Shown: one piece after another, positions 3,268 through 48,315 of the stretch
Position numbering within the stretch: position 1 is the stretch's first letter
How the letters are laid out: each line of letters opens with the position of its first letter
From: Rotaria socialis
Lineage: Eukaryota
Length of the DNA: 49,272 nt
Direction of reading: 5' to 3'
NCBI GenBank assembly: GCA_905331485.1
Contig: CAJNYT010000219.1
Span: forward strand, 1 to 49,272
Program-made: the position numbers and the translations under genes
Notes under the pieces: generated by a model
Databases searched by the model: none
Seen by the model: the letters and a program-made list of their open reading frames with translations, nothing else
Told to the model about the DNA's origin: nothing

Positions 3268-3328
3268 AGGGTATGCGTGTCGGTGTAGATGTTATTTAGT
3301 TATTTTTGCACAATCACACCCACACCCT
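3268..3328. repeat. Inverted telomeric-repeat junction (degenerate G-arm, spacer, C-arm)
   Basis: G-arm agggtatgcgtgtcggtgtag (3268-3288); C-arm cacacccacaccct (3315-3328). Confidence 0.7.
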
Positions 3329-3360
3329 CAAGAAGTTAAGAAAAAGATGTTTAATAATTT

Positions 3361-3555
3361 CTAAGTTTTGCTCGTCAAAGCTTTGCTCGCATGTTGAATG
3401 TTCTTCTTAACTTTAATGATTGCGTGATGATTGTCTTCAAATGTTTTGTGGTAAATAAGCAAAGCTTTTAAAAAACAATGGAAGGTTTGCGGATAGTTTC
3501 CAGTTGAAAAATGAATACTTCCTGTATTGTTGTAAATAAAATCAATAACAGGGCC
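3361..3555 (-). pseudogene. 3-prime terminal fragment (last 64 codons plus stop) of a TPR-protein gene, truncated at a telomeric tract
   Basis: The minus-strand translation VIDFIYNNTGSIHFSTGNYPQTFHCFLKALLIYHKTFEDNHHAIIKVKKNIQHASKAL aligns with the C-terminus of the ART-TPR protein at 25833-27707 (ATYNNIGSVYLCKGDYAKALENFEIALNIGLKSLPADHEHIQTYRENIKHAKERI). Upstream of this point the ORF is only a translation of the telomeric hairpin at 3559-3620. Confidence 0.7.
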
Positions 3556-3558
3556 TTG

Positions 3559-3620
3559 AGGGTGTGGGGTGTACATATATTTATCACCTATAAATACACA
3601 TCCACACCCACACCCACACC
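3559..3620. repeat. Inverted telomeric-repeat junction
   Basis: G-arm agggtgtggggtgt (3559-3572), 23-bp AT-rich spacer, C-arm acacatccacacccacacccacacc (3596-3620). Confidence 0.85.
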
Positions 3621-4127
3621 AACGATAAAAAAGGATATATAACTGTATAAATTTATCAAACAAGACTCGATGTAATACCATTTGTGTCTGAAACTGTTTT
3701 TACTTTTTTCAGAGAGCTCATATTCTAACCAAGTTTACCATTGTAAATGGTAATTAGCAACAAAGTTTAATAAGGTTATGCCATACATGGTTTTACTCAT
3801 CGATTCAAATAGTTCTCTCTCTCTCTCAAGTTAGATTAGGAAGTTCTTCTGATTAGAATTTGACTTTCTGCGTCGATTTGTACAAGCAGATTTTTCTATA
3901 GCACATAATTAGTTTCAAGTAGTACCGTTTGATCGCTCTTGGGTGTTCCTGTATTAATGGTTTTGAGCGGAACACAAATCAACATTCACATCTACAACCC
4001 ATTCGAAATATTTACAAGCCCTGTTGTTTTTTTTTGTGAAGTTTATAATAGAGGTCAATAACGACGAAAACATCACACACACAATCTTGTTTATTTAAAT
4101 CTTAATAATGTAGATTCTGGTGGGGGT

Positions 4128-4156
4128 TCTTTTCACGCATACCCTCCCCCCCCCCC
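4128..4156. repeat. G5 ... C11 homopolymer inverted pair (same G-first polarity as the telomeric junctions)
   Basis: ggtggggg ttcttttcacgcatacc ctccccccccccc. The C run of 11 is at 4146-4156. It is followed by (CT)n at about 4184-4200. Confidence 0.7.
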
Positions 4157-4279
4157 ACTAAACCCTAAATTTCTGTCTCCCCGTCTCTCTCTCTCTCTCT
4201 GTGTTGTCGATAAATCAATATGTAGTCTTGTTTTTAACAGTAGCATCCAGTCAAAACTAGTGTGATAGTATTTCGGTGA

Positions 4280-5362
4280 TCAAATTGATCTATCTATTAC
4301 TTGGTTGTTTCTTGGGCCTGTACCTATCAGCACCACAGGAATGCCTGTTTCACGTTCCATCATTTCTATATACTGCTTGGATTTTTCTGAAAGCTGATCA
4401 TATTGTGTGATACCAGCATCATCATAGTTGATATACTGTATGAAGTTAACTGCCAATTTGTTAACACCTGTCAGTTTCACTGCACGTTTGATACGATTCA
4501 CATCAATTTCAAATACCCGTCGTAATTTCTTAGTAACAGTTGTTAATTCTTTCGAAGAAAATGTCCCAATAGGGGCACCTGCTCGTTGTTCTACTTCTTC
4601 CCATGTGATTTCTTTTCCACCATCCCCTGAATATGCTTCACCTCCATCAGATTTAGCCATGTCATTAGAAATACGAATTGGATATGTACGAATGACACCA
4701 TAGATATCTCGAATATGTTTCGGAGGAATACCGTTATCTGAAAGTCCTTGCATTGGTGAACATTCTCTGCTGGTACAATGTGGATATTGAAAACCATGAT
4801 TAATACCTAATTCAAAACCTTGTGCTATTTCTAAAATACCTGTTTTTCCTTGTTCCAAATCATCGCAAGCCATTTCAGCTGTGTCTGCCAAAAAATTCGA
4901 CCACTCTCGAATGTCATGCATTAATTTATGATCTGGATGCCGCATTACTTTGAATGCACTAGCTGCACCAACACCTTTAAATGTACTTCCAGAGCGTATA
5001 TTCTCCTTTTCCCAATCACGATGTGTTTGTTGGATAACCGATGCTCTTGGATGAATAAAAAGACGGCCTTTTGCTTTTTCTTTGCCGCCAAGATACTGAT
5101 CAACTTCATTTTCAAGCTGTACCAAATCGATAACAGCGCCAGCACCTATATATAATTTCGTACTATCATTAATTAACGCTTGTGGCAACTGTTGGAAAAC
5201 ATATTTGGTGCCATCTTGTTTTATTACCGTATGACCTGCTTGTACACCATAGCTTTCAATAGCAAAATCATATTTGTGCTTTGTAGCTAAATATCCACCA
5301 ATAAGTCCTTTCCCGCACGATCCAAAGCAGAGATCAAGAATAATATCCAACGATCGTTCCAT
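4280..5362 (-). CDS. Adenylosuccinate synthetase family protein, short form (360 aa), PurA/PurZ-like, intronless
   Basis: Uninterrupted ATG..TGA ORF. By-eye alignment to E. coli PurA (query / PurA):
- LDLCFGSCGKG / LGTQWGDEGKGK (P-loop)
- QAGHT / NAGHT
- GSTFKGVG / GTTGRGIG
- EIAQGFELGINHGFQYPHCTS / [21 protein letters not shown]
- TTVTKKLRR / ATTGRRRR
- IGTGPR / ISTGPD
The P-loop Asp is replaced (GSCGKG). The TKLD guanine-specificity motif aligns to NFIQ. Confidence 0.85.
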   Translation of the reverse strand: MERSLDIILDLCFGSCGKGLIGGYLATKHKYDFAIESYGVQAGHTVIKQDGTKYVFQQLPQALINDSTKLYIGAGAVIDLVQLENEVDQYLGGKEKAKGRLFIHPRASVIQQTHRDWEKENIRSGSTFKGVGAASAFKVMRHPDHKLMHDIREWSNFLADTAEMACDDLEQGKTGILEIAQGFELGINHGFQYPHCTSRECSPMQGLSDNGIPPKHIRDIYGVIRTYPIRISNDMAKSDGGEAYSGDGGKEITWEEVEQRAGAPIGTFSSKELTTVTKKLRRVFEIDVNRIKRAVKLTGVNKLAVNFIQYINYDDAGITQYDQLSEKSKQYIEMMERETGIPVVLIGTGPRNNQVIDRSI

Positions 5363-5819
5363 CTGAATGCGTACCTAAAGTTGAACAAATATACATCATA
5401 TCATATAACAACAGCTATAGTGTTATTATGTGTGTACAATTGTTCTAAATAACAACGTATGATACAATACGAATGAATTCAAGTCGTAACCATTTTTCAT
5501 TATACAAAGCATTGATTGAGAGCTCTCATGTTAGTCATTTAAAAGTATCCAATTTAAAAAATAATGGTCTAAGATGATTACAAGGTAACTAAACAGATCT
5601 ATGTTTTTCTATAGGTTTCATAGGGCCTATTAGGATCTGCTAGAATCAAGCAGAGTCTAAAGGCTCGATTAAACTTCATAGAATCAACTAGCGCCCTCAT
5701 TATATGGATTCTATCTGAGGCTTTCGTGATCCCCTCACCCTAGAGATAATATATGTTGTCTTCTCTTCCATCCTCGTTCTGAAGAGTATTACAGACTCTA
5801 GCAAACCCTGTTAGATCCT

Positions 5820-5829
5820 GGGGGGGGGG
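5820..5829. repeat. G10 homopolymer, inverted partner of the C11 run at 4146-4156
   Basis: cctgggggggggga. Together with 4146-4156 it brackets the PurA-like ORF as 5-prime Cn ... Gn 3-prime. Confidence 0.7.
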
Positions 5830-6470
5830 ACTATTATGACTTATTACATAAATTATATAGAATAGAATTGTTATGGAGTTTATTTGTGCCATTCAGTGAA
5901 AACCAATCTAGAAGCTAATCCCATACGTCACAGCCATCTCATCAGTTTTAATCCAAACAGAAATAAAGCTAAGACGACGAATAATATGAAAACCACAAAG
6001 CTATTTGCATGTAAATATATTACTTTAGAAGCAGTCTCGCGCTTCCCATCTCTACTATGTTTAAAATTATGATATCATCTTTCCGCTGAAAGTTGTTTTG
6101 CAGATTTTTATTGATGCATTTCAAGCAAAAGAAACATTTTTTTTAAAAAGGAATACAAACTGGGTACTATGAAAAGAAAAGTAATCCTACATTTTCTTGT
6201 TATTTCTCGTAAATTCGTTTTGATAACTAGTGTTTTGTCTTCACCTAGCTTGTATCTTTGCTAGACGTTGACATACCTCTTCGTTTGTTCTTTCGGTAGG
6301 AAGCACCTTTATATATATATATAAGTCGATATCTTGGAAATTTTCAGTATATCTACAAAACAAGGGAAAAAATCATGGCTATAATATGGATGGTATTGGC
6401 CAGCCCAGTGCTGGATCAATGTTTATTTATTTTATTTCTTTATGTCACTCTCATCATAATCAATTAGGTA

Positions 6471-6850
6471 TCCGTATCACCAATATCAGTAACTTTATTT
6501 TTATATTTAATTAGACGGGCAATTTTCTTACTCATCGCATTTACCTATTCTTTTTCTTCTTCTCCATTAATAGACAAATATACTATATGTCTTTTACTTT
6601 TACTGACCGAAAACACAACACATGTAACATATGTTATTCGATGTCTATACAGATAATGAGGATAGAAATGCAAAAAAAAGAGAAAGAATTGGGGAATATA
6701 TGCTATCAATTGGGACACTTTCTCTTCTTTTCTCTAGTATATGTGTCTATTAATGGAGAACAAGAAAAATAATAGGTAAATACGATGAGTAAGAAAGTTG
6801 CACCATCATATTAAATAAGAACAAGAAAATTACTGATATAAGCGATACGG
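6471..6850. repeat. Fold-back inverted repeat, arms about 6471-6586 and 6735-6850, spacer about 148 bp, abutting the telomeric junction at 6864
   Basis: The reverse complement of the right arm (tccgtatcgcttatatcagtaatttt...cttactcatcgtatttacctattatttttcttgttctccattaatagacacatatacta) matches the left arm (tccgtatcaccaatatcagtaacttt...cttactcatcgcatttacctattctttttcttcttctccattaatagacaaatatacta). Confidence 0.8.
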
Positions 6851-6863
6851 ACATTTTATCACT

Positions 6864-6958
6864 GGGCGTGGGTGTGGGTGTGTGGATGAAGCAGAGAATA
6901 TGCAACACCCACACCCACACCCACACCCACACCCACACCCACACCCACACCCACACCC
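6864..6958. repeat. Inverted telomeric-repeat junction with the longest tract, (ACACCC)9
   Basis: G-arm gggcgtgggtgtgggtgtgtgga (6864-6886), 18-bp spacer, then nine perfect ACACCC units (6905-6958). Confidence 0.95.
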
Positions 6959-7575
6959 TGGTATTGCACGAAGTCTAGCACACTTCGAAACTTCTAAATG
7001 GTTTCACTCGTTAGTATGATTATAAATGCTTCTTTTGAAAGAGGTGAATAATAAACCCTTCTAATCAAAATATGATATTTACAACTCTAACTCTTAATTC
7101 TGTCTCATTTTTTTATGATGTACATTAAATAGATCAAAAAATGAGCATTGAAAAATATTTTAAAGACAAAAAGAAAATATTATTAAAATTCGAATAAAGA
7201 ACACTTGCCGAATTTAACCTTACAAATTCCACTGTTAAGCCACACATTTGCATTATGTTTGAAGAAAACAAATAAAATTTAAAATGAACATCTGGTTTAT
7301 TGAATATGTGAGTGAGAGAAAAGACAGCGCATAACTTATTTGTTAAACTGATAGATTGAAAAAAAAGAAAACCCTTAAAATGATCACTCTATCAATAAGT
7401 ATATGAATGCAGTGACGAATTCGAAAGTACCAAAAATTGGTAACATGCAGTAGAACGCATAGGCGCAGAAATTATTCAAAAATTGGATAGTCACTACATA
7501 ACAATTTTCGGGATTATATGCAAGCAGGTAACACAAAATATAAACATATCGTAAATTAAAAACACTAATAATAAA

Positions 7576-9954
7576 TTAGACTTCTTTAAATAATATTCCG
7601 TAGGGTCGAACATTCTGTGAATTGTTACACGTCCATATATCTCGATTGTGCTTTGCGATCGAACTATTATTAATTCTCACTTGAAACATAACTTGCAATT
7701 GTCGGCCATTGTATGGTGTTGGCCTAGAGTAGTGTCTACTCCCGGAATATGATGGATTAGGCGATAAATATATGCCTCGACCATGAGCAGAACCATTAAC
7801 AATAGGTATCCCATTACTACCTCCAGCAATTAAACCATTACGTAGTATAGCTAAAGCATTGGCAGTTGCAGTACCATGATAAGCTACAGGCCATGCATCT
7901 TTGCCCTCCGCTAGCCATTCAGCATTTTCATATTTTCCAAGTACTTTAATAGCCTTTCTATACCATCCGCATGGCCTTGTATAAGGTTCTGGTCCACGTT
8001 GAAAAGTTCGACCGGCATCATTTCTTGTTGTAAAATCGTAGTCGTAAGTGCTATCAAGAAACTCTTCATCTAGCATAACACGATTTACAAAACGATTAGT
8101 CCGAGCAGTAGCACTTGAAAAATGTGGAATATAAGCTGCAATTGAACTCTGATTGTATTGATAAAATCGAACGTTTTGATCATCTTCCCATCGATTTATA
8201 TCATTATCAATATTCCAATAACTTAATCGAATACTTTCAGGACATGTATATTCAGATGGTTCATTTATTATTAATAGTGGACAATGCTCTTTTTTATCAC
8301 TAAATTGAATATGATCAGCTTTGAAATGAATAACTGATATAATTCGATTATAATTTTCTTCTAATGTTCCTTTGTCCGGTACATAATCTTCGTTTTTCCA
8401 TACAGTATTTGGTAAGGATTTACTTACTACGGACTTTGATTCTGATTCTTGTGCTATTTTATATTCCATTATTCGAGAAGAATAATACATAACAGCATTA
8501 CTTTCATACATATCAGCCTTTTCACACTGAGGACACTTTATTTTTACAGTAGAATTAGACTCTTGTTTAATGGTTGATGTTAGTTTATCATTTAATCTTT
8601 TACAGCACTGGTAACAAAATAAAGCTGAACAATTTGGATTAAGACATAATCTATGTTTTTCAGGTATTAAACGACAATATAAACATTCTAAAGCCGAAGT
8701 TCCTTCCATTTCAAATTTATCAATAATTTTTGATTTACGGTATTCTGATAATCGAACTTTCTTGTAACATGTTGGACAATGATGTTCATGATTTGTATTA
8801 TCACAACTGGATTCAATACAAATGCGACAAAATACTTGTGTACAATATGGGCATTCTAAATTATCATCATTAAGTTGTGATAAACAATTTAGACATTCAG
8901 GTTTATCTATGAAAATTAATGAAGATGTTGACGGTTTATTAATTAAAGTAGCTGAATTAAAATCCGTTTCAACTGCTTGTGCTAAATTAGTTTCATTGGA
9001 TGGCGTTTCTTTTTTTGAGGATATAATTGGATTTGACTGAGTAGGATTTATTTTCTTAATGTTAACTTTATCAATCTGATTATTCAATTCATTGATTTTT
9101 GTTGATATCTTCATCCAATTGCATGATGATTTTAAATTATCGATCAAGAAATCGTTGCTCCCAATAGAAATTGTTGTTGATTTTTTATTTCCAATTGTTT
9201 GTTTTGCTTGCTGGGCGGATTTAATCACATTGATGGTCTCAACTGGAAACATTAAAATAATTGTATTATTATCCAATCGAGCTTCACATTCATAATTTAT
9301 TATAGCAAATTTATCCTTATTGATGTCTGAAACTTTTTGACAGCGATCACTAGGTTGGACTGCATTAATCTGAGATGACCCTATATCTCCGTCGACGATA
9401 GTATCAGGCTGAATATTAAATTTTAATTGAACAATAGAACCAGGATTAATTCCTAAATCCAACATTGGAATATATGCATTTTTATTTAATGAGTAATATT
9501 TTCCATTAGCCATAATTCCTTGCGCATAGCGACCGTCGCAACATCTTACTTTACAAAATTGAGATAACAATAAACGATCATAGGGTAATGCTATTAATAA
9601 TGGATAATCATATATTTGGACTGATTTGAACATGGCCGTTTTTATTAATTTAATATGTGACACGTCAGCATTAGCTGAAATGAATATTTTTTCTAGTAAT
9701 TCAAAGTAATTTTCTACATTCATTGTAATTTTTTCTGATAAATGATTAGTTTGAATCATTTTACCAATATGTTGACATAATTTATTATATCTGAGTGGAT
9801 GAATTAATTGGGACGAAGGAATAATTCCCATTTTAATTTCAGTTATTGGCCAATATCTGAGATCTTGATCTTTACTAACAGCGCTAATAGGTTTATTATA
9901 ATCAGAATTTTCACTTTCTAATTGATTAGTGTTATCGGCAATTAAATGAAACAT
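7576..9954 (-). CDS. 792-aa protein: two Cys/His zinc-finger modules (RING/IBR-like) plus a C-terminal ADP-ribosyltransferase-fold (H-Y type, PARP/NEURL4-like) domain
   Basis: Single uninterrupted ORF starting at ATG.
- Zinc modules: CLNCLSQLNDDNLECPYCTQVFCRICIESSCDNTNHEHHCPTCYKK and CLYCRLIPEKHRLCLNPNCSALFCYQCCKRL...KCPQCEK.
- C-terminus: RPCGWYRKAIKVLGKYENAEWLAEGKDAWPVAYHGTATANALAILRNGL...AHGRGIYLSPNPSYS...VRPYGILFKEV. This shows the His (xYHGT) and Tyr (GxGIYxS) signatures of the PARP-type ART fold. Confidence 0.65.
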   Translation of the reverse strand: MFHLIADNTNQLESENSDYNKPISAVSKDQDLRYWPITEIKMGIIPSSQLIHPLRYNKLCQHIGKMIQTNHLSEKITMNVENYFELLEKIFISANADVSHIKLIKTAMFKSVQIYDYPLLIALPYDRLLLSQFCKVRCCDGRYAQGIMANGKYYSLNKNAYIPMLDLGINPGSIVQLKFNIQPDTIVDGDIGSSQINAVQPSDRCQKVSDINKDKFAIINYECEARLDNNTIILMFPVETINVIKSAQQAKQTIGNKKSTTISIGSNDFLIDNLKSSCNWMKISTKINELNNQIDKVNIKKINPTQSNPIISSKKETPSNETNLAQAVETDFNSATLINKPSTSSLIFIDKPECLNCLSQLNDDNLECPYCTQVFCRICIESSCDNTNHEHHCPTCYKKVRLSEYRKSKIIDKFEMEGTSALECLYCRLIPEKHRLCLNPNCSALFCYQCCKRLNDKLTSTIKQESNSTVKIKCPQCEKADMYESNAVMYYSSRIMEYKIAQESESKSVVSKSLPNTVWKNEDYVPDKGTLEENYNRIISVIHFKADHIQFSDKKEHCPLLIINEPSEYTCPESIRLSYWNIDNDINRWEDDQNVRFYQYNQSSIAAYIPHFSSATARTNRFVNRVMLDEEFLDSTYDYDFTTRNDAGRTFQRGPEPYTRPCGWYRKAIKVLGKYENAEWLAEGKDAWPVAYHGTATANALAILRNGLIAGGSNGIPIVNGSAHGRGIYLSPNPSYSGSRHYSRPTPYNGRQLQVMFQVRINNSSIAKHNRDIWTCNNSQNVRPYGILFKEV

Positions 9955-10016
9955 AATTAATTGTAAAACTGAAATGGACTCATTTTCTGATAATAGTGTT
10001 TTTGATTCTTTACGTT

Positions 10017-10688
10017 CTAATAATAATAATCGGATTTATGAATAATTAATAATCGAAATGGTGGTAATGCAACACGATTTAATCGAAAAGAAAGTTTTAA
10101 AATTTCTTCGTATAATTCTTTTGCTTCATTTTCTAATGAAATCATTATATTTTCATATACTAATACATAATCAGCAAGATCAACAGGTATTGTGTCAATG
10201 TTATCACTATATAGTATAGTGGATAATATCAGATGAGCTGCACCAATAGTCATAGATTTCGGCAACCAAATCGATTTTAATTGACTATTTTTTGTTGTAG
10301 AAGATAATGAATTTAATGATTTAACTGAATAAATTTCATATTTAACCATACCAGCATCAGTGGTCTGATTTATATTATTAACAGTAATAAAATTACTAAA
10401 AGTTGTATAGAGATCATTGACAAATTCGTGTAAGATTGGATTGCCTTTTAAGTCTAAGACTTTTGTTTGTGCTTGTTGTTGAGATTTCTCAATTGTTTCT
10501 TTAACTATTTTACCGTGATCTTTTGATGAAAATGAATTAAAACAATACTTTTCACTTTCAAATAATGCTTTTAATATATTGACAGTTGTTGGGGTGTCAT
10601 AGATAATATTACTTATTGTGTTGTTTCGGTTATTCGCATTAAGATCATTAGTATCGCTTTGATTGGGAACAGTGGAGGAATTACCCAT
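10017..10688 (-). CDS. 223-aa protein of unknown function with an N-terminal myristoylation-type motif (MGNSSTV)
   Basis: ATG-initiated ORF on the same strand as the zinc-finger-ART gene, ending 62 nt upstream of it. No domain recognised by eye. Gly2 plus Thr6 fits the MGxxxS/T pattern. Confidence 0.45.
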   Translation of the reverse strand: MGNSSTVPNQSDTNDLNANNRNNTISNIIYDTPTTVNILKALFESEKYCFNSFSSKDHGKIVKETIEKSQQQAQTKVLDLKGNPILHEFVNDLYTTFSNFITVNNINQTTDAGMVKYEIYSVKSLNSLSSTTKNSQLKSIWLPKSMTIGAAHLILSTILYSDNIDTIPVDLADYVLVYENIMISLENEAKELYEEILKLSFRLNRVALPPFRLLIIHKSDYYY

Positions 10689-11449
10689 TTTTTATTCGTT
10701 CGTAGGCAGAAAATCTGAAATTGTAGTCAAACTATAAAAGTAATACTAACATCGGATTAACTATAAAAATTTTGTGCTAATGATTCGAACAGAAACTCTT
10801 CTAATCGTCGTCCTTCTTCTATCTTAAGAAATTAAAAGACAAAAAGACCGCTTGATAACAGATAAAGAAGAATATTAAAATAAATAGAAGGATGTTTTCA
10901 TATTATCTAATCATTGCTGCTAGATCCTAATAGATATATTTGGCATTTGAATAGATAATTTTAACTTGTGTTCAATATCATATAACACTGTTGTATGGAA
11001 AAAATTTTTATTGCCAACGAAAAATCGTCAACCCACTTGTTTGAACAAGAATTTAAATATTTCAATTTTTTATTGTAGTGTTTTTTATGGGTCACCCTGT
11101 ATATAAACGAAACGAAAAGAAAAATGTAATATGAATCATTACTAACAACAAGAGACATGAAGAGAAACTCAAGGACACGCATATATAGTGAAATCTATAA
11201 TAAAGAAAGTACCAATAGTCTCCTCTGAACACAGTACAGATCATAACTATCTAATATAGATGAATAAATTATGAATATATCAGTGGCTGGCATGTGTAAG
11301 ATTTGCATAACTTGATGCAACCTAATTCACATATTCTTCAGTTCTATCTGAGTCGATTGAATGTAAAAGCTTTTCAGAATAAAGTAAAAATCATGCCAAC
11401 TTTAAAAAATTATTTCCTATGTAATGTTAACTGGCTGTCTCTTGTTTCA

Positions 11450-11508
11450 GCGGATGTGGATGTGTGTGCGCTATCTTTAACCCAGCCTACGCCCACACCC
11501 ACACACCC
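11450..11508. repeat. Inverted telomeric-repeat junction
   Basis: G-arm gcggatgtggatgtgtgtgcg (11450-11470), spacer, C-arm cgcccacacccacacaccc (11490-11508). Confidence 0.8.
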
Positions 11509-11542
11509 TTATGATACTTGACGTCTCTTATTGATCCTTGTA

Positions 11543-12551
11543 TTAGAGATCTGAGCTACGTAAACTCCAGAGTTTAATTATCCATTTGTTTGCGATTTCA
11601 TCAAAGTGGCACGATGTTACCTTAGCAGGAAAACCATCGAAAATCAAAAGTTCTTGTTCATCCGGATAATTTGAATATGGGGACATATCCAGAGAGCCGG
11701 TATCTTTTTCGAGGTCAATGACAAAAAGAAAGTTGCTGCCAAAGAATTCGGCCACGTTCGGATTAAGAGTAGTTGAGGTAAACGCCGGTAATTGGATTTT
11801 TCTTTCAGAGACAACGCATAGTCGAAATTGTTCAATTTGTTCGTTAGTCATCGTTGCTCCTCGATATACTATCATATTAGTGGGAGTAAAATTCATAGCT
11901 GAATTCAATAGTACAGCAAATGGGCCGTTTGGCCATCCATTCACCTTCTCGTTGCTTCCCCACCTTTTTCGCTTCGATTATAAATCCTTCCGCTGCCTTT
12001 TCTATCCACATCTCAAGTACTGACTGACAAGTGATACCTTTCTCCCAACCAACGCCGTAATGAGAACAAGCTTCTTGAACAAAATCAGGAGTTGTTGGTT
12101 CAATTTGCCAGTTTATGAAACTGTTCGAAGGCAAAACTGAATCTTCCAAGAAACGTTCCGCTCTTACTCGTTTCTCTCGTTCATCCTTGTTACGATCAAC
12201 TATACGTTTCACTGGCCGTTGTTTCTTTTCGTCATTATTAGAGATTTGCATAGAACGTGCAAAAACGATATGATAGTCGTCGAGAAGAGCTTCTGGTAAG
12301 CCTTGTTGGAATGCTTCTTCGATGATTTCAGTTTCTACATCGGTGTATTTTCGCCATTCAGCAGGTTCTGCAAAACAGAAAGGAAGCGCATTAGATTGCC
12401 ACAGCCACTCTATATACTGCTTGGCAATCAATGCAGTAGTAGTCATATACGCAACGACCAAACGGTAGCAGTAAAGATTAGATGTGATAGTAAAAAGAAA
12501 GAAAATGAAAGATATATTTCGTTTCATTATTGACTCTTTTTGTTGTTCCAT
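11543..12551 (-). CDS. WWE domain plus R-S-E (arginine-type) mono-ADP-ribosyltransferase, 2 exons (12551-11945, 11898-11543)
   Basis: - N-terminal part: YIEWLWQSNALPFCFAEPAEWRKYTDVETEIIEEAFQQG...YHIVFARSMQISNNDEKKQRPVKR matches the WWE pattern (W-W...W-x-Y...E-x-A...Q...R-x-V-K-R).
- C-terminal part: VYRG (Arg), FTSTT (STS) and PDEQELL (ExE) ART motifs.
- The two ORFs overlap in different frames. A 46-nt GTGAAT...TTCAG intron (11899-11944) joins them in phase, giving 963 nt = 320 aa. Confidence 0.8.
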
Positions 12552-12797
12552 TCTGTGGCTGGAAGAAAGAAAAAAAAGAAAGGAAATGAAAGGAAATGAA
12601 AGGAAAGAAAAGAAGGAGACAATGTTGGTTAACTTCTGTTATGACACGTCTATAAGCTGTGTCATAAGATGAAAGGTATCACCCAAATATCTTGAGGATG
12701 TGTATAGTAAACAGAGACGTGCACAGGATATAATTTTTTCTCCTGCTCTTGCCTGTCCTGTTACCTACCTTGGTTCTGGTGGGCGGCAGGACAGGAG

Positions 12798-12868
12798 AGG
12801 GTGTGGGTGTGGGGTGTGTAGAGGTGGATGTGTGAGGTGATGCTTCTCTTCACTCACACTCACACCCT
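12798..12868. repeat. Inverted telomeric-repeat junction, preceded by a GC-rich CCTGTCCTG/CAGGACAGG hairpin (12752-12797)
   Basis: G-arm gagggtgtgggtgtggggtgtgtagaggtggatgtgtgaggtg; C-arm cactcacactcacaccct. Confidence 0.8.
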
Positions 12869-13386: not shown

Positions 13387-13510
13387 GATGTGGGGAGTGT
13401 GGTGTGGGTGTGGGTGGGTGTGGGTGTGAGTGTGTGTGAATCGCCAAACAAAACACCTATAGGGCACCCACACCAGCACCAACTCACGCCCATACACCAA
13501 CACCCACACC
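13387..13510. repeat. Inverted telomeric-repeat junction (long, degenerate arms)
   Basis: G-arm ggatgtggggagtgtggtgtgggtgtgggtgggtgtgggtgtgagtgtgtgtg (13387-13438); C-arm cacccacaccagcaccaactcacgcccatacaccaacacccacacc (13465-13510). Confidence 0.85.
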
Positions 13511-14461
13511 AGAGACCGTCACAGGGCAGGGCAAAAGTTTTTGCCCTGCGCCCTGATAATTTTTCCTATAAACTGATATACAGCATATTTTTCAGTAGAT
13601 TATGCTGACATGGTGATGGATTATAATGTATGTCATTATGCGCCAGTCACTGTGAAATTTGTTACTATGTCTAGTTCGGACAATACCAGTTTACTCATTT
13701 ATTATCATATAATTCAATTATAAAAATAAAATACTGCTTCTAAGAGAAATGCAAAACATGGTAGAATCATTTAATATTGTATAAGAGAACGAGCTAATTT
13801 AAGAATTATGTGTATGATGAGCTTTTTTTCTAAATGATTTCAGACATGAGCTTAGTATTCCAGAGGAAATTTCACTTGAAGATTCAACATGTTCTAATGG
13901 TAACTTTCTTCGCATGTTTTAGTTTTGTATGCTTAGTTCTCTATGTTTTAAATTATTTTCACTTGATATGAACTCGCCCGGTTTTACAAAATTAGAAGAT
14001 CTCTTATTTCATGATAAATCTTACCGCCCCATAATACACAATGAATCTCTTGCTACTGGTACATTTTGAAGAGTCTTTATTTACCCAGCACGATGAGTTG
14101 AGGAGAATACATGTGAAAGATTTACTTGATTTCTCACTTATTCAAATTATGTACATATTCAATCGCCAGATCACGATAAGCGCATTATTTTTGCAGTGAA
14201 CTGATTTTTGTGATAATCTTAATTGCTGTTTGCTACTCATACTTAATTATGTTTTCAGCGCATATCTATATTTTCTCGAATATAGATAAATAAAAATACG
14301 AGTACTTTACTTTTCAGCGGTTACAACATTTTCATTTAGTCTTTACCTTTTTCAATATTTCAGTTCAATTTATAATCACGCCCTGTCCTGCCCTGAGACA
14401 GGGCAGGATATAGCAGGGCGCAGGGCAGGACAGGGCAAAAAGTTGCCCTGTGACGATCTCT
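13511..14461. mobile_element. Non-autonomous element of about 950 bp with GC-rich CAGGGC-palindromic terminal inverted repeats, apparently inserted into the telomeric C-arm
   Basis: The left end is agagaccgtcacagggcagggcaaaagtttttgccctgcgccctg. The reverse complement of the right end is agagatcgtcacagggcaactttttgccctgtcctgccctgcgccctg. The interior is AT-rich with no ORF. C-strand telomeric sequence lies on both sides (..cacccacacc | element | gatccacaccc). Confidence 0.65.
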
Positions 14462-14472
14462 GATCCACACCC

Positions 14473-14530
14473 AGCTTTTGTTAAATTATTTATTAAATGC
14501 CAAGATTTATTTTTTCTGATCGATAGAATG
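14473..14530. repeat. Second copy of the 57-bp unit at 619-675
   Basis: Starts immediately after the solo telomeric C-arm ccacaccc (14465-14472). Confidence 0.8.
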
Positions 14531-16377
14531 GTATTTGTGTATTGAATGAGAAGGGAAATGAAAATTTTTCACTTCTATAAAAACATAGTTGTAAAATATT
14601 TTAACAGTTAAAATAAATATTAAATTCGATTTTACTCATCAATTAATTGAAATTAATAGTTTAGAAAAATCTATTCTATTATGAGCAGAAATTATCAAAG
14701 GTTAAATGAATTTACATAGTACAGAACAAAAATATATGAATCGTTACTATTGCGATGTAATCGAACAAATGCTTCGAGTGCTAGAGGCATCATTATATAT
14801 TGAACTATGTAGAAGTTTATTAATAATAATCTATGAAACTCATTTAGTCTCGGAATATTATCTTCGTAGACATTGAAATTTTGTAAAAATACAATTTTAG
14901 TTTTAGTTTTCTATCATTTGAAATAGGAAATGACTTTTATTGTAATTAAGAAAGCAGTAAAATATCTTATCATCGAAGTCATCCATGATATCTAAGTGAA
15001 ATTATTAGAGATAATCAAGTTGATTTGTTCCGAATTTCATTTCAACACGTTTTGTATTCGTTTTCAATTGTATTTAATAACTGATAAACATGGTCAAGTA
15101 TTATTCAAATATGAATAATTCTGTTGTATTTAAACATAAAGATTTCGATTGAACATACGAAGAGAAACTTTCATTGCTAATGAAAAATATTGAATAATCA
15201 TTGAGACATTTGAACGACTTGTCTTCGCTTTTAAGAATGACGCCAAAATATAAACCTATTTTAATTAGTTCGACACACAGCTATTTAGTCACGCTCGATT
15301 AAATATATATAATTATTTACTTGTAAACAAATTATTTTTTAAAAAATAATTGTATATTTAAATGGCAAATATATTTACAAAAAAAAGTGTTGCTTGAAGT
15401 TCACTGTGATAATGGTTGTGGTTTACTTGTCAATGAAAATTGTCGAGAAAATCTTTTGTTTTTTTTCTTTATTGAATAATCTTTCTCTTCATTTTTGTTA
15501 ATTAGTCAATACATTTATTAAATTATATTCGAACTCATTATTATTTGTCATCATCAATAAAAAATGGATTTATGTTTAATAAATAGTGGAGAACCATTGC
15601 ATCTTTCATCATCTGATACAAAAATTATTTCATCAGGAAGATATTGTTTTCCGTCTCTTTTTCATTGAAGATCTGGATGCATGATATTCACCTCACACAT
15701 TCTACTCTTGTCTTAGTGCATGGGAAAAGACACATATATTTTTGTTGAACAGAAATCTTATTTTCAATCTTTTTTATTTGCTTAGTTTAACAGCTTTGGT
15801 GTGAATGAGAGATGAGCACAATATGCTCTCCCATCCACACGTTTGCCTTCGAGCTATTTTTAATTATTTGTCTCTAGAATAATGATAAAATTGTTAAACT
15901 TGAAAAAAAATCATTCATAAATATGAAATATCTAATAACTTATCAATATATATTCGAGTTTTATGATAGCACATCAATATGCGTATAAAATTCTCCATAG
16001 GTGCACACTTATCAATAAGGAAATGGATGATCTTAACCATTCTATCGTTTCTAGTACTATAATGGGCCACTTCTACAGTTCGATATATCAAAAATTAATA
16101 GATTACATCTACATTGAAAATATCTGGTAAATAGTTTCATCGGATTAATTCACCTATATATTTCTTTTTTTCTATAAGGAATCTTTTTGTTAACATAATT
16201 GATTATCAATGATCGGCTATCATTTAGACGATGTCCGTCAAGCATTGTATAAGTATACGTCTATTCTATTATCCGATAGACACATTATATCGACAATGAA
16301 TTCTTTATCAGGTATGAGTATGTGTAGCTCTTTGATAATATCATTTATTTGTATTATTCTTCTGTACAGAAGACTCC

Positions 16378-18720: not shown

Positions 18721-18885
18721 GAGAATTATTTTTTTCTAAAAGAAAATAACTCAGTTAAATTACACGGCTGATAAGTATCGGACACTCAGGATACTTTAAT
18801 AAATAGACTGCAGATAGATTTTTGATGTATTTTAACTTTGTATCTGTGTGATACACTTACATATTGTATTGTTCTCTTAGAACGG

Positions 18886-19505: not shown

Positions 19506-20126
19506 GCATGCAAAATACAAGGAGGCCTATTATTTTTGTCTGTCCATTATAAGAGTGATTTATAAGCAGCTACGTAAAGAACATGATATATTTTTTCACC
19601 TTAGGCAAATATTAGTTTTGGCTCATGACGCGAACTTTCGAAATGTTTTATTAATATTTCACAATACGTATTTTTGATGACGTCATTACTCTGAATAACA
19701 GATGAGATATGTTTTAATCACAGTCAAGTTATTAGAATTTTCAACGTTGTTTTAACAAAAAATACGTCTAAGTGATATAGGTAAAGTTAGCACCAAATTC
19801 GGTTATTTTTTGTCCGGATTAGCTCAAGAACGTGCGTTCGATGTAAAATTAAATTCTACGTCGAATTGCATTATTTTCAATAGTGGTCATCGAGCAAGAA
19901 AAGGGGCTCAGGATGAAATACTAGAGTTCGGGTGCACGATACCATAATCTTGATAGGCATTATTGAAGTTGGTCAAAAGATTTCAATCGCCACATAGGGT
20001 TGGACCGTTTGTTAGCTATAATATGTATAGAATGAAAGAAAGATATAAGGAATGAAAGAGGGATATATAGAGAGTGAAAGAGACAAGCAGTGTCACTGAT
20101 GTTATGTGACAGAACGAAGAAAAATA

Positions 20127-27707: not shown

Positions 27708-27722
27708 TCGAATATTAATAAT

Positions 27723-43084: not shown

Positions 43085-44470
43085 TTGCAACAAGAATCAT
43101 TAGAGGAATATGAAAAGGCTGATTCAGATAAGGGCAAGGGCACTGACGCTGGCGATGGCAATAGTTTCAGTGGCGATTTACCTTCGCTTCGGTTTACAGA
43201 CACTCGTGGGCCTTCGCCGATGAGTCATGATTTTCCCACTTGGAAGACCACTCTAGATAATGGAAATGAACGCTTAAAAGAACCGACTGGTCTTAATATA
43301 TTTTCGAAATTAGAAGATCAACCGGTACCAATATCTACTGTTTATAACAAACTGGCAGGAAAGAAGAAGAGAGGTAAGGTCATCATTATTATCAAGCTTA
43401 TTACATTATATCCGTTATAGGGTCATTGTCTGCGCCACTATCAGGGCTATCACTCGAACCGCCTCCAAAACAATCAAGTAAGATTTGAATAATAGATTGT
43501 TTGTATACGATCAAGAGTTCCGAATGTTGTACACTTATTTCCGAGAAGAAAACAGCAATTTATGAATTTGATTGAGTTTTAGTGATTTTTGCCCGATATT
43601 TTAAATTCAGAGTTACTGAGACTCCATCGAGTTTACAAAAAGTAATTAAAAGTTAGAAATGTTATGTTTCGACTACTGTCACTGATAAGTAATATTCGTG
43701 TTCTTATTCATATTATTGCTAACCTTTCCCTAACGAAAGTTTGAAGTTTACAAGTTCAGAAAATTACCTTTACATGAATGTGAATAACGGTGAATCTTCC
43801 TGTTACGTATATCTACCCTTACATTCGCACTCTCTTAAATATTTTTGCTGGAGTAGAAAGAACGATGGTAAGAAATTGAGCTATCAAAGTGCGGCACCCT
43901 TATTAGTTTGTTGCCAGCTGTGCACATTAAACATGCTACGTTCTGATTTGCTATCCATGTTAGGCGTTGAATTGGCAGAACCATTCGATTTTTACGGCCT
44001 TATCACTGATACTTCTGCATGGGCTTCTCTTTCTTTTCCCAAGCCACTGTCACCAGACATATCATGTCGAACAATATCATCCTGCACTAATGACAGCTAT
44101 ATGCCATCTCCAATAGCATTAAAACCGAACCCAAGTGTTGGTAAGTTAGAACCACATAAATTTCTCGATTACTTTAATTAATGGATCATGAACATAGAAC
44201 CATCTTTAGAAATGTCGTCATTTGGTGGTAGACACGATAGCATACAAGTTGCTACAAGTGAATCAAAAAGCTCGGAAGAAGCGAATATGTCAACGAAAAA
44301 ATCAGTTCGATACACTAAAGTACGTACATTAAAATGCAAGTTTTACAGAAACATCATCCAATTTTAGGAGCACCGATATGACGATAGAACGATAGACTTT
44401 GCACGTGAAAGTGCGCAACCAAAATCCACGATTTGTAAACAGACAAGAGAATTAGAGACGTGAGTTTTAA
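43085..44470 (+). other. Probable upstream exons (Ser/Pro/Glu-rich, no recognised domain) of the Hsp70-SBD-containing gene
   Basis: Several open segments are bounded by good splice signals. Examples: 43085-43371 ends AAGAGAG|GTAAGG; 43421-43487 encodes GSLSAPLSGLSLEPPPKQS then GTAAGA; and ..GVELAEPFDFYGLITDTS...KPNPSV then GTAAGT at about 44140. I could not build a complete in-phase model. Confidence 0.3.
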
Positions 44471-44578
44471 AAGGCTTGACGAGGATATGCAATGATTCGT
44501 TATTGATTGTCATTTTCGATCGATGGCTCTTTCTTTTTAATGATAACGAAATGAAAATTTAGATTTATGAAAATTTAG

Positions 44579-46216
44579 ATTTCGAAGACAATTTGCACTT
44601 AATTTAACGTCCAACATATCTGTCTGTAATCTACTTCTTCTGGACGTATGCCCACTTGGTCTGGGCATCGAAGATATTAAGGGTGAGATGCATACATTGG
44701 TACGCCGTAATACAGTTATTCCAACGCGAACTCAACTTTATCCTATATTCACAAATGCTTATGCCTATCAGGCAACAGCTACCATTCGAATATTTGAAGG
44801 TGAACATTATCTCACAAAATACAATGTATATAGTGTTCTAACTTCATAAATTTTATTTTCTAATCGTCCTCTATTGCAGAGATTATTGGGCGAGTTTAGT
44901 CTTCCTGGTCTAACAAGCAACTTCTCTGCTCAGACACTCGAAATAGCTATTCGTATGGATATTGATGCTAATGGGATACTTCATGTCGATGCTGAAGAAG
45001 CACGTTCGGGCGCGAAAGCTTCGTTTATTCTTGGATCTGATCAGCAAAGTTCGACAATTACTCAGATATTTCATACCATCGCTAAATGCCTTTTATATTT
45101 ATCTAGGATTGAGCAAAAATGATATTGAGCGACATATTGCATATGTAGAAAGTGATGCAAATGTTGCAGCTAAATCTGGTTAGTGTGTAAAAAGGATAAA
45201 TGATGTTCAATTATTGTTATTTTGTAGTTCATGATCACAAACCCAATGATCGATTGTATTTAGTTCGTATTATGTCATCTTTTCATAGTTCGATTGTTCA
45301 CTTTTTCTGTTTTTTCTCAGCTGGCTGGCCAAATTACATCTGTAATACGTGACTTTTCTGGTGAACTTATAACATCATTCGGTAATTTGTCCTTCGTTGT
45401 TGTTTGAAAGATATAGCGAAAATGGTGTATGAATTCAGGTCAAACAATTGGTGCTCCACTTCTCATTCAACTGAAAAATGTTCGATTTTCAAAAACGTTA
45501 ACTGAAGAGCTCATCAAAATTCAATCTGAGGTAATTGATACTATTTTCAAGTCTTATTACCAAATCATTGTTTTGCATTTGATTCGAACATAGGACGGTT
45601 CATTTACGTTGAATAAAGATTTAGCTGATATACTTCATGTCAATGTTGATATTTTCGATGGCCTAGAACAATACTTACGCGCACTAGGTTTTAACTCGCT
45701 CGGTAAGATCGTAAGATTTATTATAGAGATATGACCTTTAATTTTTTTTTAGCTTTGAACACACAAAATGAAATTCTTCGTTTAATTGGTACAGGTGTCA
45801 TTCTGTTTTGGCTCGCTCTTCAAATGCAAGACTCACCACAAAACACGTGTCCATTTTTATTTAACATTGAACAAATCAAAGTGAATTGATTTTTTCCAAT
45901 CTTTGCAATTTATATCCTACTCTCTTTATGTTGCCACAAAACACGTGTCCATTTTTATTTAACATTGAACAAATCAAAGTGAATTGATTTTTTCCAATCT
46001 TTGCAATTTATATCCTACTCTCTTTATGTTGCTAAGGCTTTTCTCTGCAATCATTTATCTGCTAACACAAGTGAAAAACTTGACAAAGCGATCGGATTCT
46101 ATCAACAAATAAGTCAACGTAATCGTATCTATTGTAAACAATTAGAATTGAGCGATTCATCATGGGACATGTTTATTCAACGTATAGTTATCGGCATCGA
46201 TCATGGCGATAACTAA
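44579..46216 (+). CDS. Multi-exon gene segment: Hsp70 substrate-binding-domain-like module followed by a PARP4/VWA5A-type C-terminal region
   Basis: - Exon 44579-44825: ..SNISVCNLLLLDVCPLGLGIEDIKGEMHTLVRRNTVIPTRTQLYPIFTNAYAYQATATIRIFEGEHYLTKYN.
- Exon 44880-45048: RLLGEFSLPGLTSNFSAQTLEIAIRMDIDANGILHVDAEEARSGAKASFILGSDQQ.
- Exon 45107-45178: LSKNDIERHIAYVESDANVAAKS.
- These three match Hsp70 DLLLLDVxPLSLGIE...RNTTIPTK...YEGER...LLGxFxLxGIPPAPRGxPQIEVTFDIDANGIL...LSKEEIERM.
- Further exons (about 45289 or 45321)-45381, 45439-45530, 45594-45702, 45753-45880 and 46037-46216 encode ..KIQSEDGSFTLNKDLADILHV...LRLIGTGVILFWLALQ... and the stop.
- The junction after 45178 is unresolved. Confidence 0.65.
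45837..46032. repeat. Perfect 98-bp tandem duplication (45837-45934 and 45935-46032)
   Basis: cacaaaacacgtgtccatttttatttaacattgaacaaatcaaagtgaattgattttttccaatctttgcaatttatatcctactctctttatgttgc occurs twice back to back without a mismatch. It covers the last 44 nt of an exon, its GTGAAT donor and 54 nt of intron. Confidence 0.95.
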
Positions 46217-46666
46217 AAATTGATTTTCAGTGCCATCGATTGTTTTAATAATTTAACCATTACACTTTTATTATTCTAATCATGAATCACATCGATATTG
46301 TTTATTCTTGAGCACAAAAAAAAGCAAAGCATTCAAGCGTGCCGGTGGAAATGTGTGAGGGTAATAGTAAACATAAGGCGTACATCCTCATGTTTTTCAT
46401 GAGTCAGGTGTTGGAAAAAGTAGTTGCAAGAATCCTCAGTGCAAATTTTGGCGCGTTAGTAATTATGCTTGGCTTACGACTAAGAGGCATTGCACGTAAG
46501 CCACGACCAATTGCCACAGAACGTTGCTCAATGAATTTCACTGATTTGAGTGATCTTTTTACTGTGGGTAGATACCATAAAGTTATGGAGAGTCCCAAAA
46601 TTTCAACTCAAACGAATAAGCCGTTCCCGAAATATGAGTTTTGAAAATATGGAAATTTCAAAAAAA

Positions 46667-46775
46667 GGGGTGCGTGTGTGGATATTCCTGTAATTTGTTG
46701 TCACACCGAAACGCACGCTCCAGGCCCCCGACACACACCCGTCTACGCACCCGTCTACGCACCCAAAACCCATAC
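46667..46775. repeat. Degenerate inverted telomeric-type junction
   Basis: G-arm ggggtgcgtgtgtgg. The C-rich side is cacaccgaaacgcacgc ... cgacacacacccgtctacgcacccgtctacgcacccaaaaccc, which includes a 12-bp tandem acccgtctacgc x2. Confidence 0.5.
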
Positions 46776-48315
46776 TCCGGTATGTTTCCGACAGGAATAC
46801 TGATTGCATCTTACGGGAATCTTTTCAGTAGGAATCAGCCGAAAAAGACGATGTTACCGGCGGGCCCCCGCCGGATTCTGTCAGAGAAATCATCGGCTTG
46901 TGTTTATTCACTCTGTAAATTGTCTTCTTTGCACACATGCATATACCTATAAGACTGTTTCTCGTTCCTTGTGATGAAATCATTTTCTGTTAGCATAATA
47001 ATCAAACGCTTTGGCGCTCTCCGCATCCAAATACAACACAGATTTTGTGTGATTTTTGCATGTGAGGTATCATCTTATTTCATGACCATGGTGAAAGTAT
47101 GCAAGGGTGTGTGAGTGTGGTGCAGGGTGGTCAGATCTTCTGAAAACCAGGGAAAATTTCTAAATTTTGAACATGTTCCTGATTATTTCTGAATTTGAAA
47201 TATTTTCAGATCGCTGCTTTGTCACTGAAATTAGGTACGATTATAACCCATTACTATAATAAATCAATTGCGTTTGATCAATTTTCTGTTTTAATCATCT
47301 TTTTATTCCTCGTTCAAATTCTGGAGTCGAATTGATTTTCGGTTATATGAAGCATTTATAGTTCGATTATCGTAATCTAGTAATACAAGTAACGCTCGTC
47401 GCTGTGCGATTCGCTTAACCCTCGACTGAAGAGTTTAAAGCAAGAATATATTATTCAATCTTACCCGGAAGAACTTTAACAATATCAAAGTACCGAATCT
47501 CCTCTACCACAATTATGTTATAGTTGACTTTCAAAACGTCCGCAGCTTCAAATGATAGTAATATCTGGATATAAAATTGATACGTTGCGCTAACATTTTG
47601 ATTAGATAAAGTCTTACAAAGATATATATCATAAAATTCTGATTTTCATATCACGATGGTCACAACAATATCTTGAAATGCTCTGAGATTTTTAATATGA
47701 AAACAATGTGTCTGTCAACACAAACTTATTCAGAATATGATACAGCGACCATTCATACTAGCGTTAGTTGATAAAGCCATTTGCCAAGACAAATATTATT
47801 CTATGGGGCAAATAATGAACTGAAAGAAGTTGATTCCAATTATCAGAAGTGGATATGGTTCTCCAGGGCTAGTTCGAATGTATAGCCAGAACACATGTAT
47901 ACCAAAATATTAGCTAAAAATGTACTTAAGATGAAACATGATTTCATTGTCGAATTTATGGGCCATCCTAGTCACATAGTACCATAAAATGATTTAATTA
48001 GAAGTATAAGATGGTATTGTAGCAGAGTGTGTTTATTCGTGAAATTCGATAACTAATCATGAATTACAAAGATATTAAATTTATAATGAAAAAAAGGAAT
48101 ATGGGATGAATATATAGAACAAAAGTAGTACCTGAATATTTCGCATATCATTTCATATGACGATAAAAAAAAGGAGACTACAGCTAATACATGCAATACG
48201 AGCAACAAAGTATAGTCAAATGTATAGATCATAGAGTAACTAATATAGAAAAGAAAATCATATACATAAAAATTGACACAAACTAGAGCAGTTTTCATGC
48301 AAAGCAGAAAAGATG

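Follow-up and report, generated by a model that had tools for sequence, protein, structure and literature searches.

The window analysed here, a stretch of 49,272 nucleotides (49 kb) covering positions 1 to 49,272 of contig CAJNYT010000219.1 (assembly GCA_905331485.1) of the bdelloid rotifer Rotaria socialis, contains a PurA/PurZ-like gene, several genes of the ADP-ribosyltransferase (ART), PARP and TPR families, a glycosyltransferase gene, a calmodulin-like gene, a caspase-domain gene and a tRNA-like sequence. Between and within these genes lie inverted pairs of telomeric repeats, which are referred to as junctions. Each junction consists of a G-type arm (TGTGGG-type repeats), a spacer and a C-type arm (CCCACA-type repeats), with variants in both arms. 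TGTGGG is the bdelloid telomere repeat and is found at scaffold ends of Adineta vaga (PMC7943196, PMC8494291), in agreement with the preliminary description of this DNA, made from the sequence alone, in which the repeat was taken for the telomeric repeat of the source group. The twelve sites and the shared layout reported there were recovered in full (12/12, within a few bases) when the sites were printed and scanned with 12-mers, as was the existence of solo arms, while the degenerate thirteenth site is plausible as a decayed junction. The junctions, the blocks between them and the solo tracts are as follows (positions are those of the window), and junctions are cited below by their first coordinate.

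Junction 1, 3268-3328: degenerate G arm at about 3269-3288, spacer TAGATGTTATTTAGTTATTTTTGCACAA, C arm at about 3309-3328
Block B1, 3329-3558, minus strand: 3' end of a TPR-family gene, comprising ~65 terminal codons with the stop codon, then 32 nt of 3' flanking DNA
Junction 2, 3559-3620: G arm 3556-3569, C arm 3596-3624
Block B2, 3621-6863, minus strand: PurA/PurZ-like adenylosuccinate synthetase gene, 4280-5362
Junction 3, 6864-6958: G arm 6862-6885, spacer about 6886-6904, C arm (ACACCC)9 at 6905-6958
Block B3, 6959-11449, minus strand: zinc-finger/PARP-like (ZnF-PARP) gene, 7576-10688, with one intron
Junction 4, 11450-11508: 34 nt past the stop codon of the WWE-ART gene
Block B4, 11509-12797, minus strand: WWE-ADP-ribosyltransferase (WWE-ART) gene, 11543-12551, with one intron
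Junction 5, 12798-12868: identical in the Rotaria magnacalcarata locus L137
Junction 6, 13387-13510: degenerate G arm at about 13399-13438 and C arm at about 13463-13512; no other degenerate pair in the window is as long
Junction 7, 21251-21303
Junction 8, 23098-23162
Junction 9, 24862-24954
Junction 10, 25439-25495: 337 bp upstream of the ART-TPR gene
Block B10, 25496-27722, plus strand: intron-less ART-TPR gene, 25833-27707, with its stop codon 15 nt before the next G arm
Junction 11, 27723-27778
Junction 12, 39771-39827: within the 833-bp intron of the calmodulin-like gene
Probable decayed junction, 46667-46775: G-type start GGGGTGCGTGTGTGG, then a C-type region with the 12-bp tandem repeat CACCCGTCTACG
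Two solo G-type tracts, 20778-20791 and 20955-20968, plus strand: without recognisable partner
Solo C-type tract, 23417-23428, plus strand
Solo degenerate G-type tract, 47105-47130, plus strand

The earlier proposal that each block holds one gene, a gene pair or a gene fragment is roughly right, but three blocks hold several features. Block 27779-39770 contains the glycosyltransferase gene, a PARP4-like (VIT-VWA) gene and exon 1 of the calmodulin-like gene, and blocks 13511-21250 and 39828-46666 are also multi-featured, with the remainder of the calmodulin-like gene and further sequence lying beyond the junction at 39771. In three genes a junction is found 15-34 nt past the stop codon; one of them is the minus-strand TPR fragment, where the C arm of junction 1 lies 32 nt past the stop codon.

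The enrichment of telomeric sequence in the window is very strong. With up to one mismatch, GGGTGTGGGTGT matched 40 times, compared to 0.00 expected from 100 dinucleotide-preserving shuffles. A 12-mer scan in all six repeat phases identified 13 tracts each of G and C type when up to one mismatch was allowed, and 17 each when up to two were. All 12 short-range opposite pairs in the window were ordered G to C, with gaps of ~10-45 nt, and no pair in the C-to-G order was found at short range by the same scan, which confirms the proposed G-arm-first polarity. Further G-to-C junctions were found in related loci (L008 424-476; L015 1-118, 1285-1606 and 9009-9078; L138 3454-3497 and two degenerate pairs; L143 3847-3889; L144 6-135), and two apparent solos in L138 of R. 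magnacalcarata have degenerate G partners. Across all bdelloid loci fetched, a sample of ~150 kb of related, non-random loci and not a whole genome, the independent junctions total ~21 G-to-C vs. 0 C-to-G. The head-to-head polarity of two telomere-capped ends that had been read from the window is thus seen throughout. A metagenome sample collected with exact (TGTGGG)3 was set aside: its 120 loci were nearly all same-orientation microsatellites of 45-70% GC and so not bdelloid, and the 5 G-to-C vs. 0 C-to-G pairs among them came from unrelated organisms, with no bdelloid sample included.

The longest arm in the window, (ACACCC)9 at 6905-6958, is exact, as described earlier (9.0 copies at 100% in Tandem Repeats Finder). 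Arm lengths range from 12 to 55 bp in the window and reach ~170 and 140 bp in one junction of Rotaria sp. Silwood1 (L015) and 97 bp in L144, and because the arms attain these lengths they are remnants of genuine telomeric tracts. Spacers are present in all junctions, measure ~10 nt or more (range ~10-45 nt) and are each unique. No spacer consensus was found by pairwise local alignment (mean score 5.58 vs. 5.45 for shuffled spacers), which upholds the earlier view that the spacers share no consensus and belong to no repeat family. Nor was templated filler found, the longest spacer matches elsewhere in the window being no longer than those of shuffled spacers. Since the arms are inverted, the junctions can form hairpins: when folded as single strands, 7 of the 12 outdo each of 200 shuffles (z from -3.0 to -5.2), three more are marginal (z about -2.1 to -2.3), and those at 3268 and 11450 do not stand out from their shuffles (the two z values being -1.1 and -1.7). 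The outer ends of the arms commonly read AGGGTGTG... and ...CACACCCT. We noticed that TAGA or TAGC directly follows 5 of 15 G arms (window plus L015) and that most arms end in the register ...GGGTGT, a pattern that could result from telomerase halting at, or slightly over-reading, its own template.

Proteins encoded in the window match R. socialis proteins exactly. At least 12 independent R. socialis assemblies carry the locus, at 99.7-100% identity and with every junction at the same position, which answers the call in the preliminary description for a check in independent assemblies. The assemblies beside the source are GCA_905332275.1, GCA_905332285.1, GCA_905332265.1, GCA_905331495.1, GCA_905331295.1, GCA_905331475.1, GCA_965120325.2, GCA_965120295.2, GCA_965120305.2, GCA_965120315.2 and GCA_965120245.2; the individuals were sampled in the UK and Italy and were assembled with different technologies. 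In the 959,733-bp contig CBCPMT020000001.1 the locus occupies 342,434-364,308 and is internal, 342 kb from the nearest end. The region is thus not at the end of a contig (342-364 kb of 960 kb). It should be noted that in assembly GCA_965120295.2 (L004 1-1768) an inverted copy of window 10870-12637 is joined to 17596 with a 7-bp overlap; these breakpoints lie away from the telomeric arms, and the arrangement reflects an assembly error or else a genuine haplotype with an inversion/deletion.

Comparison with R. magnacalcarata captured the start of a repeat tract on unique DNA. At position 3620, on the side of the PurA-like block, the window reads ...ATCGTTGG followed directly by TGTGGGTGTGGG, with repeats beginning immediately on unique DNA. 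At the same point, R. magnacalcarata reads ...ATCGTTGG followed by TGGATATAGTGGGTATAC... and has 120 bp more unique DNA, then its own, different junction and then a Radial_spoke gene. Because the repeats begin on unique DNA where the sister species continues, position 3620 bears the signature of a de novo telomere-addition site, at which a break would have been healed at TG-rich sequence. On the other side of this junction, block B1 (230 bp) is a piece of a TPR gene that was broken inside its coding sequence: the arm directly abuts codons on the 5' side, and the remainder of the gene is not adjacent. A second captured fragment occurs in R. magnacalcarata (L144), where two junctions, of which one carries the 97-bp arm, enclose a piece of ~260 bp with homology to window 32330-32486.

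The junction at 39771 provides a different case. It interrupts the first intron of the calmodulin-like gene, a GT..AG intron of 833 bp (39136-39968), which separates exon 1 (39124-39135, MKIK) from exon 2 (from 39969). The related bdelloid contig L013, with ~80% nucleotide identity, is collinear with window 32916-46285, and no telomeric tract was found in this collinear contig; its counterpart gene has the same exons (exon 1 reads MEIT) and an intron of 129 bp without repeats. Because both flanks are collinear with this repeat-free relative, the sequences indicate that the junction at 39771 is a break rejoined in place and not a seam between independent DNAs. The claim that every block was once an independent capped DNA is therefore not borne out. 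Repeats are thus absent from the related locus in two cases, i.e., at 3620 in R. magnacalcarata and in the calmodulin-like intron in L013. The recorded gene models of this region (~33100-41700, plus strand) merge the PARP4-like VIT-VWA-PARP part with the calmodulin-like EF-hand exons into a protein of ~2170 aa that spans the junction at 39771. This fused model is probably a mis-merge, because the calmodulin-like exons include an ATG exon of their own (39124-39135).

Several junctions are shared with R. magnacalcarata, with point differences, and the matches, spacers included, are 96-98% identical. Locus L137 of that species is ~97% identical to the window and keeps the junctions at 12798 and 11450 with their spacers. 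Collinearity suggests that L137 is the ortholog, and in that case these junctions are probably older than the separation of the two species. The junction at 25439 is kept in a 90% identical R. magnacalcarata paralog (L138) with substitutions and the loss of one ACACCC unit, at about the divergence of the flanks, which would be expected under neutral decay. In the comparison of the junction at 11450 with L137, there are more differences inside the junction than in the flanks. Arms as well as spacers thus diverge at a rate similar to, or above, that of the flanks, and nothing suggests constraint.

Where copies of a block exist, homology tends to end at the arms. The R. magnacalcarata paralog of ART-TPR (90%) is homologous to exactly 24956-27722, the interval between one C arm and the G arm that follows it, and of the junction at 24862 this paralog keeps only the remnant GGTGAGTG...TTCATAC. 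In a WWE-ART paralog of R. socialis (96.6%), the near arm, spacer and far arm of the junction at 11450 are all shared, and divergence is complete just beyond. The PurA-like block B2 is 96% identical in R. magnacalcarata, where its neighbours differ on both sides; the junction at 6864 keeps its spacer there, with a far arm of ~15 bp vs. 54 bp and different DNA beyond it. In Rotaria sp. Silwood1, a relative of the ZnF-PARP gene has G-to-C junctions of its own on both sides and no other neighbour in common with the window, and the flanks of the junction downstream of ZnF-PARP are strongly diverged between R. socialis and this species. Flanks are contiguous at the junction at 39771; contiguity fails at 3559, 6864, 24862 and 27723 and at the TPR fragment. 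The ART-TPR, WWE-ART and PurA blocks thus behave as units with breakpoints at the arms, a point for which the preliminary description had called for such comparison.

No telomeric tract was found near the ZnF-PARP relatives of Adineta ricciae (L145) or of a more distant bdelloid scaffold (L016), nor at the PARP4-like loci of Rotaria sp. Silwood2 (L012), L013 and L014. Because the related loci L012, L013, L014, L016 and L145 are without tracts, junction density is local and lineage-specific, not a property of the genes concerned. In R. magnacalcarata, TIR-domain genes and more ART-TPR genes lie beside junctions in L138/L139 1-3139. The presence of these genes there, together with the caspase, PARP and ART genes of the window, suggests that junction-rich regions house expanded, immune-like gene families. 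Short junction-bounded blocks in L015 (119-1284) and L008 (477-950) are rich in palindromic repeats of the GGATCC/GGATCCGA type, without a mutual BLAST alignment.

We propose, with a probability of about 65%, that the junctions originate as telomerase-healed ends joined head to head. A double-strand break, or two breaks that free a fragment, would expose 3' ends; telomerase would extend each 3' end with (TGTGGG)n, with a preference for TG-rich sites, and the C strand would then be filled in. The two neo-telomeric ends would be ligated by end joining with insertion of 10-45 nt of filler, so that the product on either strand would read G arm, spacer, C arm, and blocks would come to be bounded as 5'-(CCCACA)n...(TGTGGG)n-3'. 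If the partners were the two sides of one break, an in situ scar would be left, as in the calmodulin-like intron; if they were unrelated ends, new neighbours, captured pieces such as the 230-bp TPR fragment and possibly foreign DNA would be brought in. Afterwards, the arms would lengthen, shorten and decay like neutral microsatellites and would serve as fragile or homologous sites for rearrangement, with the consequence that blocks are duplicated and reshuffled as units between paralogs and sister species. We infer telomerase as the enzyme, as well as the fill-in and end-joining steps, and the constant presence of filler may reflect that overhangs of G and T alone offer each other no base-pairing. 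The earlier hypothesis that telomerase-healed fragments were ligated end to end is largely upheld by the empty site at 3620, the truncated TPR fragment and the homology ending at arms, although not every block was an independent capped DNA.

Several observations weigh against this proposal. A spacer of at least ~10 nt at every junction is not predicted by simple telomere-telomere ligation. The junctions at 11450 and 6864 keep their spacer and both arms while the DNA beyond the far arm differs; given that a fresh fusion would create a new spacer, these changes need a second process, either recombination or breakage at the arms, or another mechanism, for which telomere-primed reverse transcription is less likely than recombination or breakage. 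The empty-site comparisons are only two (3620 and the L013 intron), one of them at the nucleotide level, and the polarity count comes from the non-random sample described above. Finally, both R. socialis and R. magnacalcarata are obligately aquatic and non-desiccating (PMC7943196), and desiccation, the usual source of massive breakage in bdelloids, is thus inapplicable today in both species.

Junctions could instead be rare products of any route, with the cassette pattern created mostly by ectopic recombination between interstitial telomeric tracts. Whether by homologous recombination, single-strand annealing or break-induced replication, exchange between the arms of different junctions would swap, invert, duplicate or delete blocks and leave the G-spacer-C layout intact, and by reasoning an inversion between a C arm and a G arm would also keep the polarity. 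The homology of copies that stops at or within arms, with the spacer and both arms kept, is what such exchange would leave behind, as is the high variability of arm length between species, and interstitial telomeric sequences (ITSs) are fragile and cause gross rearrangements in yeast (PMC11626172). We nevertheless regard this as unlikely to be the main explanation: it accounts neither for arms abutting truncated coding sequence nor for the de novo start of an arm where the sister species continues, and it leaves spacers that are all unique unexplained. Ectopic recombination complements, rather than replaces, healing and fusion of ends.

A more far-reaching possibility is that the junctions constitute a cassette system, in which the outward-facing telomere seeds at both ends of every block would allow gene-sized pieces freed by a break in any spacer or arm to be capped immediately by telomerase and re-ligated elsewhere, or in which transcripts ending in a C arm would be copied by an Athena-type reverse transcriptase. 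This is quite doubtful. If true, it would be a dedicated bdelloid route to shuffle, duplicate and perhaps import genes (foreign genes and the fast-evolving ART, PARP, TPR and caspase families), and it would resemble a linked form of the gene-sized chromosomes of ciliates.

Retro-mobilisation by an Athena/Terminon-type reverse transcriptase, of the type proposed for Terminons, would begin with a transcript that leaves a block through its G arm and the spacer and stops in the next C arm; its 3' (CCCACA)n tail would anneal to a telomeric G overhang, either of a chromosome end or of a healed break, and prime cDNA synthesis. The product would consist of far arm, spacer, near arm and block, with the far arm merged with the target repeats and the other end variably truncated and capped by telomerase. 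The copies at 11450 and 6864 fit this product, as they keep arms and spacer, differ beyond, and have at 6864 far arms of 54 bp vs. ~15 bp. Likewise, the two species differ at the opposite end of the PurA block, the TPR fragment is truncated at its 5' side with an intact 3' end beside a junction, and intron-containing genes can be dispersed by Penelope-like elements (PMC3846280). However, this mechanism presupposes a junction and so leaves junction origin unexplained, and it is at odds with the introns and upstream regions retained in the blocks, with the intronic junction and with an ART-TPR paralog that lacks junctions at both ends; moreover, Terminon arrays carry tracts in a single orientation. 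Searched against Rfam at E<=1, the full window gave no hammerhead ribozyme, and no reverse-transcriptase domain was found by Pfam in 20 open reading frames (ORFs) of at least 90 aa, with part of those at 40-49 kb included, or in the called-gene Pfam listings for 15-37.7 kb. We therefore judge retro-mobilisation improbable.

It is very improbable that the junctions are selected functional elements, i.e., hairpin or cruciform boundaries, insulators, terminators or sites for telomere-binding proteins, and the second hypothesis of the preliminary description, functional hairpin boundaries or terminators, is accordingly not sustained. Such a role would suit the hairpin capability of the junctions (7/12 above all shuffles) and their mostly intergenic location, with three of them 15-34 nt past stop codons. 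It does not suit an intronic junction, junctions that border a dead gene fragment, or related genes without junctions in L013, L014, L016 and A. ricciae. Also against it are substitutions and losses of repeat units in arms and spacers that keep pace with, or exceed, those of the flanks (11450 vs. L137 and 25439 vs. L138), arm lengths of 12-170 bp and spacers without consensus.

A miniature foldback family, or one of transposons with terminal inverted repeats, with telomere-like inverted ends and repeated insertion, is largely refuted. It could claim the inverted-repeat anatomy and the recurrent outer ends AGGGTGTG / CACACCCT, whereas the internal sequence is without consensus and the arms vary greatly in length. 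Target-site duplications were not above chance at the junctions (mean best flank repeat 4.2 nt vs. 4.6 for the null), no repeat family common to the blocks was found, and comparison of the sister species shows flanks that are not contiguous, with changed neighbours, lost sequence and a truncated gene. Assembly artefact through chimeric joining of telomeric reads, for which nothing speaks except that repeats are hard to assemble in general, is excluded by the same junctions in at least 12 assemblies from different individuals and technologies, one of them with the 960-kb contig, and by point differences in the orthologous junctions of a second species.

The junctions share features with several known systems. 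Fusion-type ITSs, such as human 2q13, are head-to-head arrays of G-then-C repeats that result from telomere-telomere fusion (PMC8537989, PMC7215372). Like them, the junctions are degenerate, non-terminal and made of their own group's telomere repeat, with the G strand before the C strand. They differ in density, a dozen within 49 kb where an ancient chromosome fusion leaves one, in their tiny arms, in the unique spacer of 10-45 nt that is constantly present, and in the pieces joined, which are gene-sized or smaller and not chromosome arms. Short vertebrate ITSs are attributed to telomerase that inserts repeats at break sites, and these sites show deletions, random nucleotides and rearrangements (PMC8537989, PMC7215372). 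There, one orientation is the rule, with head-to-head repeats in 3 of 41 TERC-ITS loci; the explanation offered for these rare loci is that a second telomerase extended the opposite side of the break (PMC8537989). The abrupt presence of repeats relative to a repeat-free orthologous locus is common to both systems. However, the head-to-head order is the rule in the junctions (~21 pairs vs. a handful of solos), and many junctions part non-syntenic DNA.

Bdelloid subtelomeres, with their Athena/Terminon arrays, carry short telomeric stretches among repetitive or foreign genes, copies truncated at the 5' end by telomeric repeats and host genes captured between units (PMC6431247, PMC2861651, PMC3846280). 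Terminon chains run head to tail, with a hammerhead ribozyme beside (ACACCC)n, and from the priming model in the same work such chains would give tracts in a single orientation (PMC6431247). These arrays have the repeat and the animal group in common with the junctions, from which they differ in that the latter are strictly inverted pairs, no ribozyme or reverse transcriptase was found, and the locus lies 342 kb inside a contig. Telomeric repeats are also found at deletion breakpoints in A. vaga lines (PMC13564844), and ITSs in yeast act as telomere seeds (PMC11626172). As in chromosome healing, repeats were put directly on a unique, TG-rich break sequence; in contrast to healing that yields a terminal deletion and a working telomere, both healed ends here would have been re-ligated internally and fossilised in pairs. 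Spirotrich ciliates have gene-sized, telomere-capped chromosomes. The blocks resemble them in the C-strand...G-strand polarity around one or a few genes and in their very short 3' flanks (15-34 nt in three cases), but they are covalently linked in a germline assembly, one junction splits an intron, and they are known from assemblies alone. No description of serial, strictly head-to-head pairs with unique spacers delimiting gene-sized rearrangement units was found in searchable full texts, although an earlier description is possible.

Bdelloids are the classic case of massive foreign-gene content and of extreme tolerance to DNA breakage, and the route by which fragments are stitched into their chromosomes is what is at issue here. 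The scars would be a sequence-level record of single break-and-join events, from which it can be read which ends were capped and fused and which pieces moved, and which can be dated between species. If the pattern is genome-wide, pattern counting and alignment could address how frequently telomerase acts internally, whether scars preferentially flank foreign or fast-evolving gene families and to what extent ITSs drive rearrangement. Scars in two non-desiccating species also bear on the need for desiccation in such genome remodelling.

The foreign fragments proposed earlier are plausible for two genes of the window, for both of which foreign origin is only a candidate interpretation. The PurA-like protein (4280-5362, minus strand) is an adenylosuccinate synthetase of 360 aa that scores 218 bits to both the archaeal-type PRK04293 and the phage PurZ of the 2-aminoadenine pathway, in both cases below the curated cut-offs, and also matches PHROG 1211; its gene is a candidate for horizontal acquisition and of an unusual type for an animal. 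The glycosyltransferase at 28479-30079 (minus strand) contains Glyco_transf_28/EryCIII-like domains, its nearest models are of the bacterial macrolide type, and it is likewise a candidate foreign gene.

Other repeats and genes were observed in the window. Large non-telomeric palindromes or inverted repeats are found at 2170-2774, 18886-19505 and 42505-42724 and at 40244-40448 with 40860-41187. The palindrome at 18886-19505 is rearranged in GCA_905331495.1 (L002), and the pair at 40244-41187 looks like a foldback insertion, or one of the miniature inverted-repeat transposable element type, in the second calmodulin-like intron, where L013 has ~35 bp. A perfect tandem duplication of 98 bp (2.0 copies, 100% identity) occupies 45836-46032. 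The tRNA-like gene at 20127-20198 (minus strand), near the two solo G-type tracts, scores 49 bits with the Rfam tRNA model and is called Ser-GGA by ARAGORN; it is 72 nt long and without the long variable arm expected of a serine tRNA. An ORF at 48316-48933 (minus strand) has a weak match to the helicase C-terminal domain UvrD_C_2 and may be a Helitron or Pif1-like remnant.

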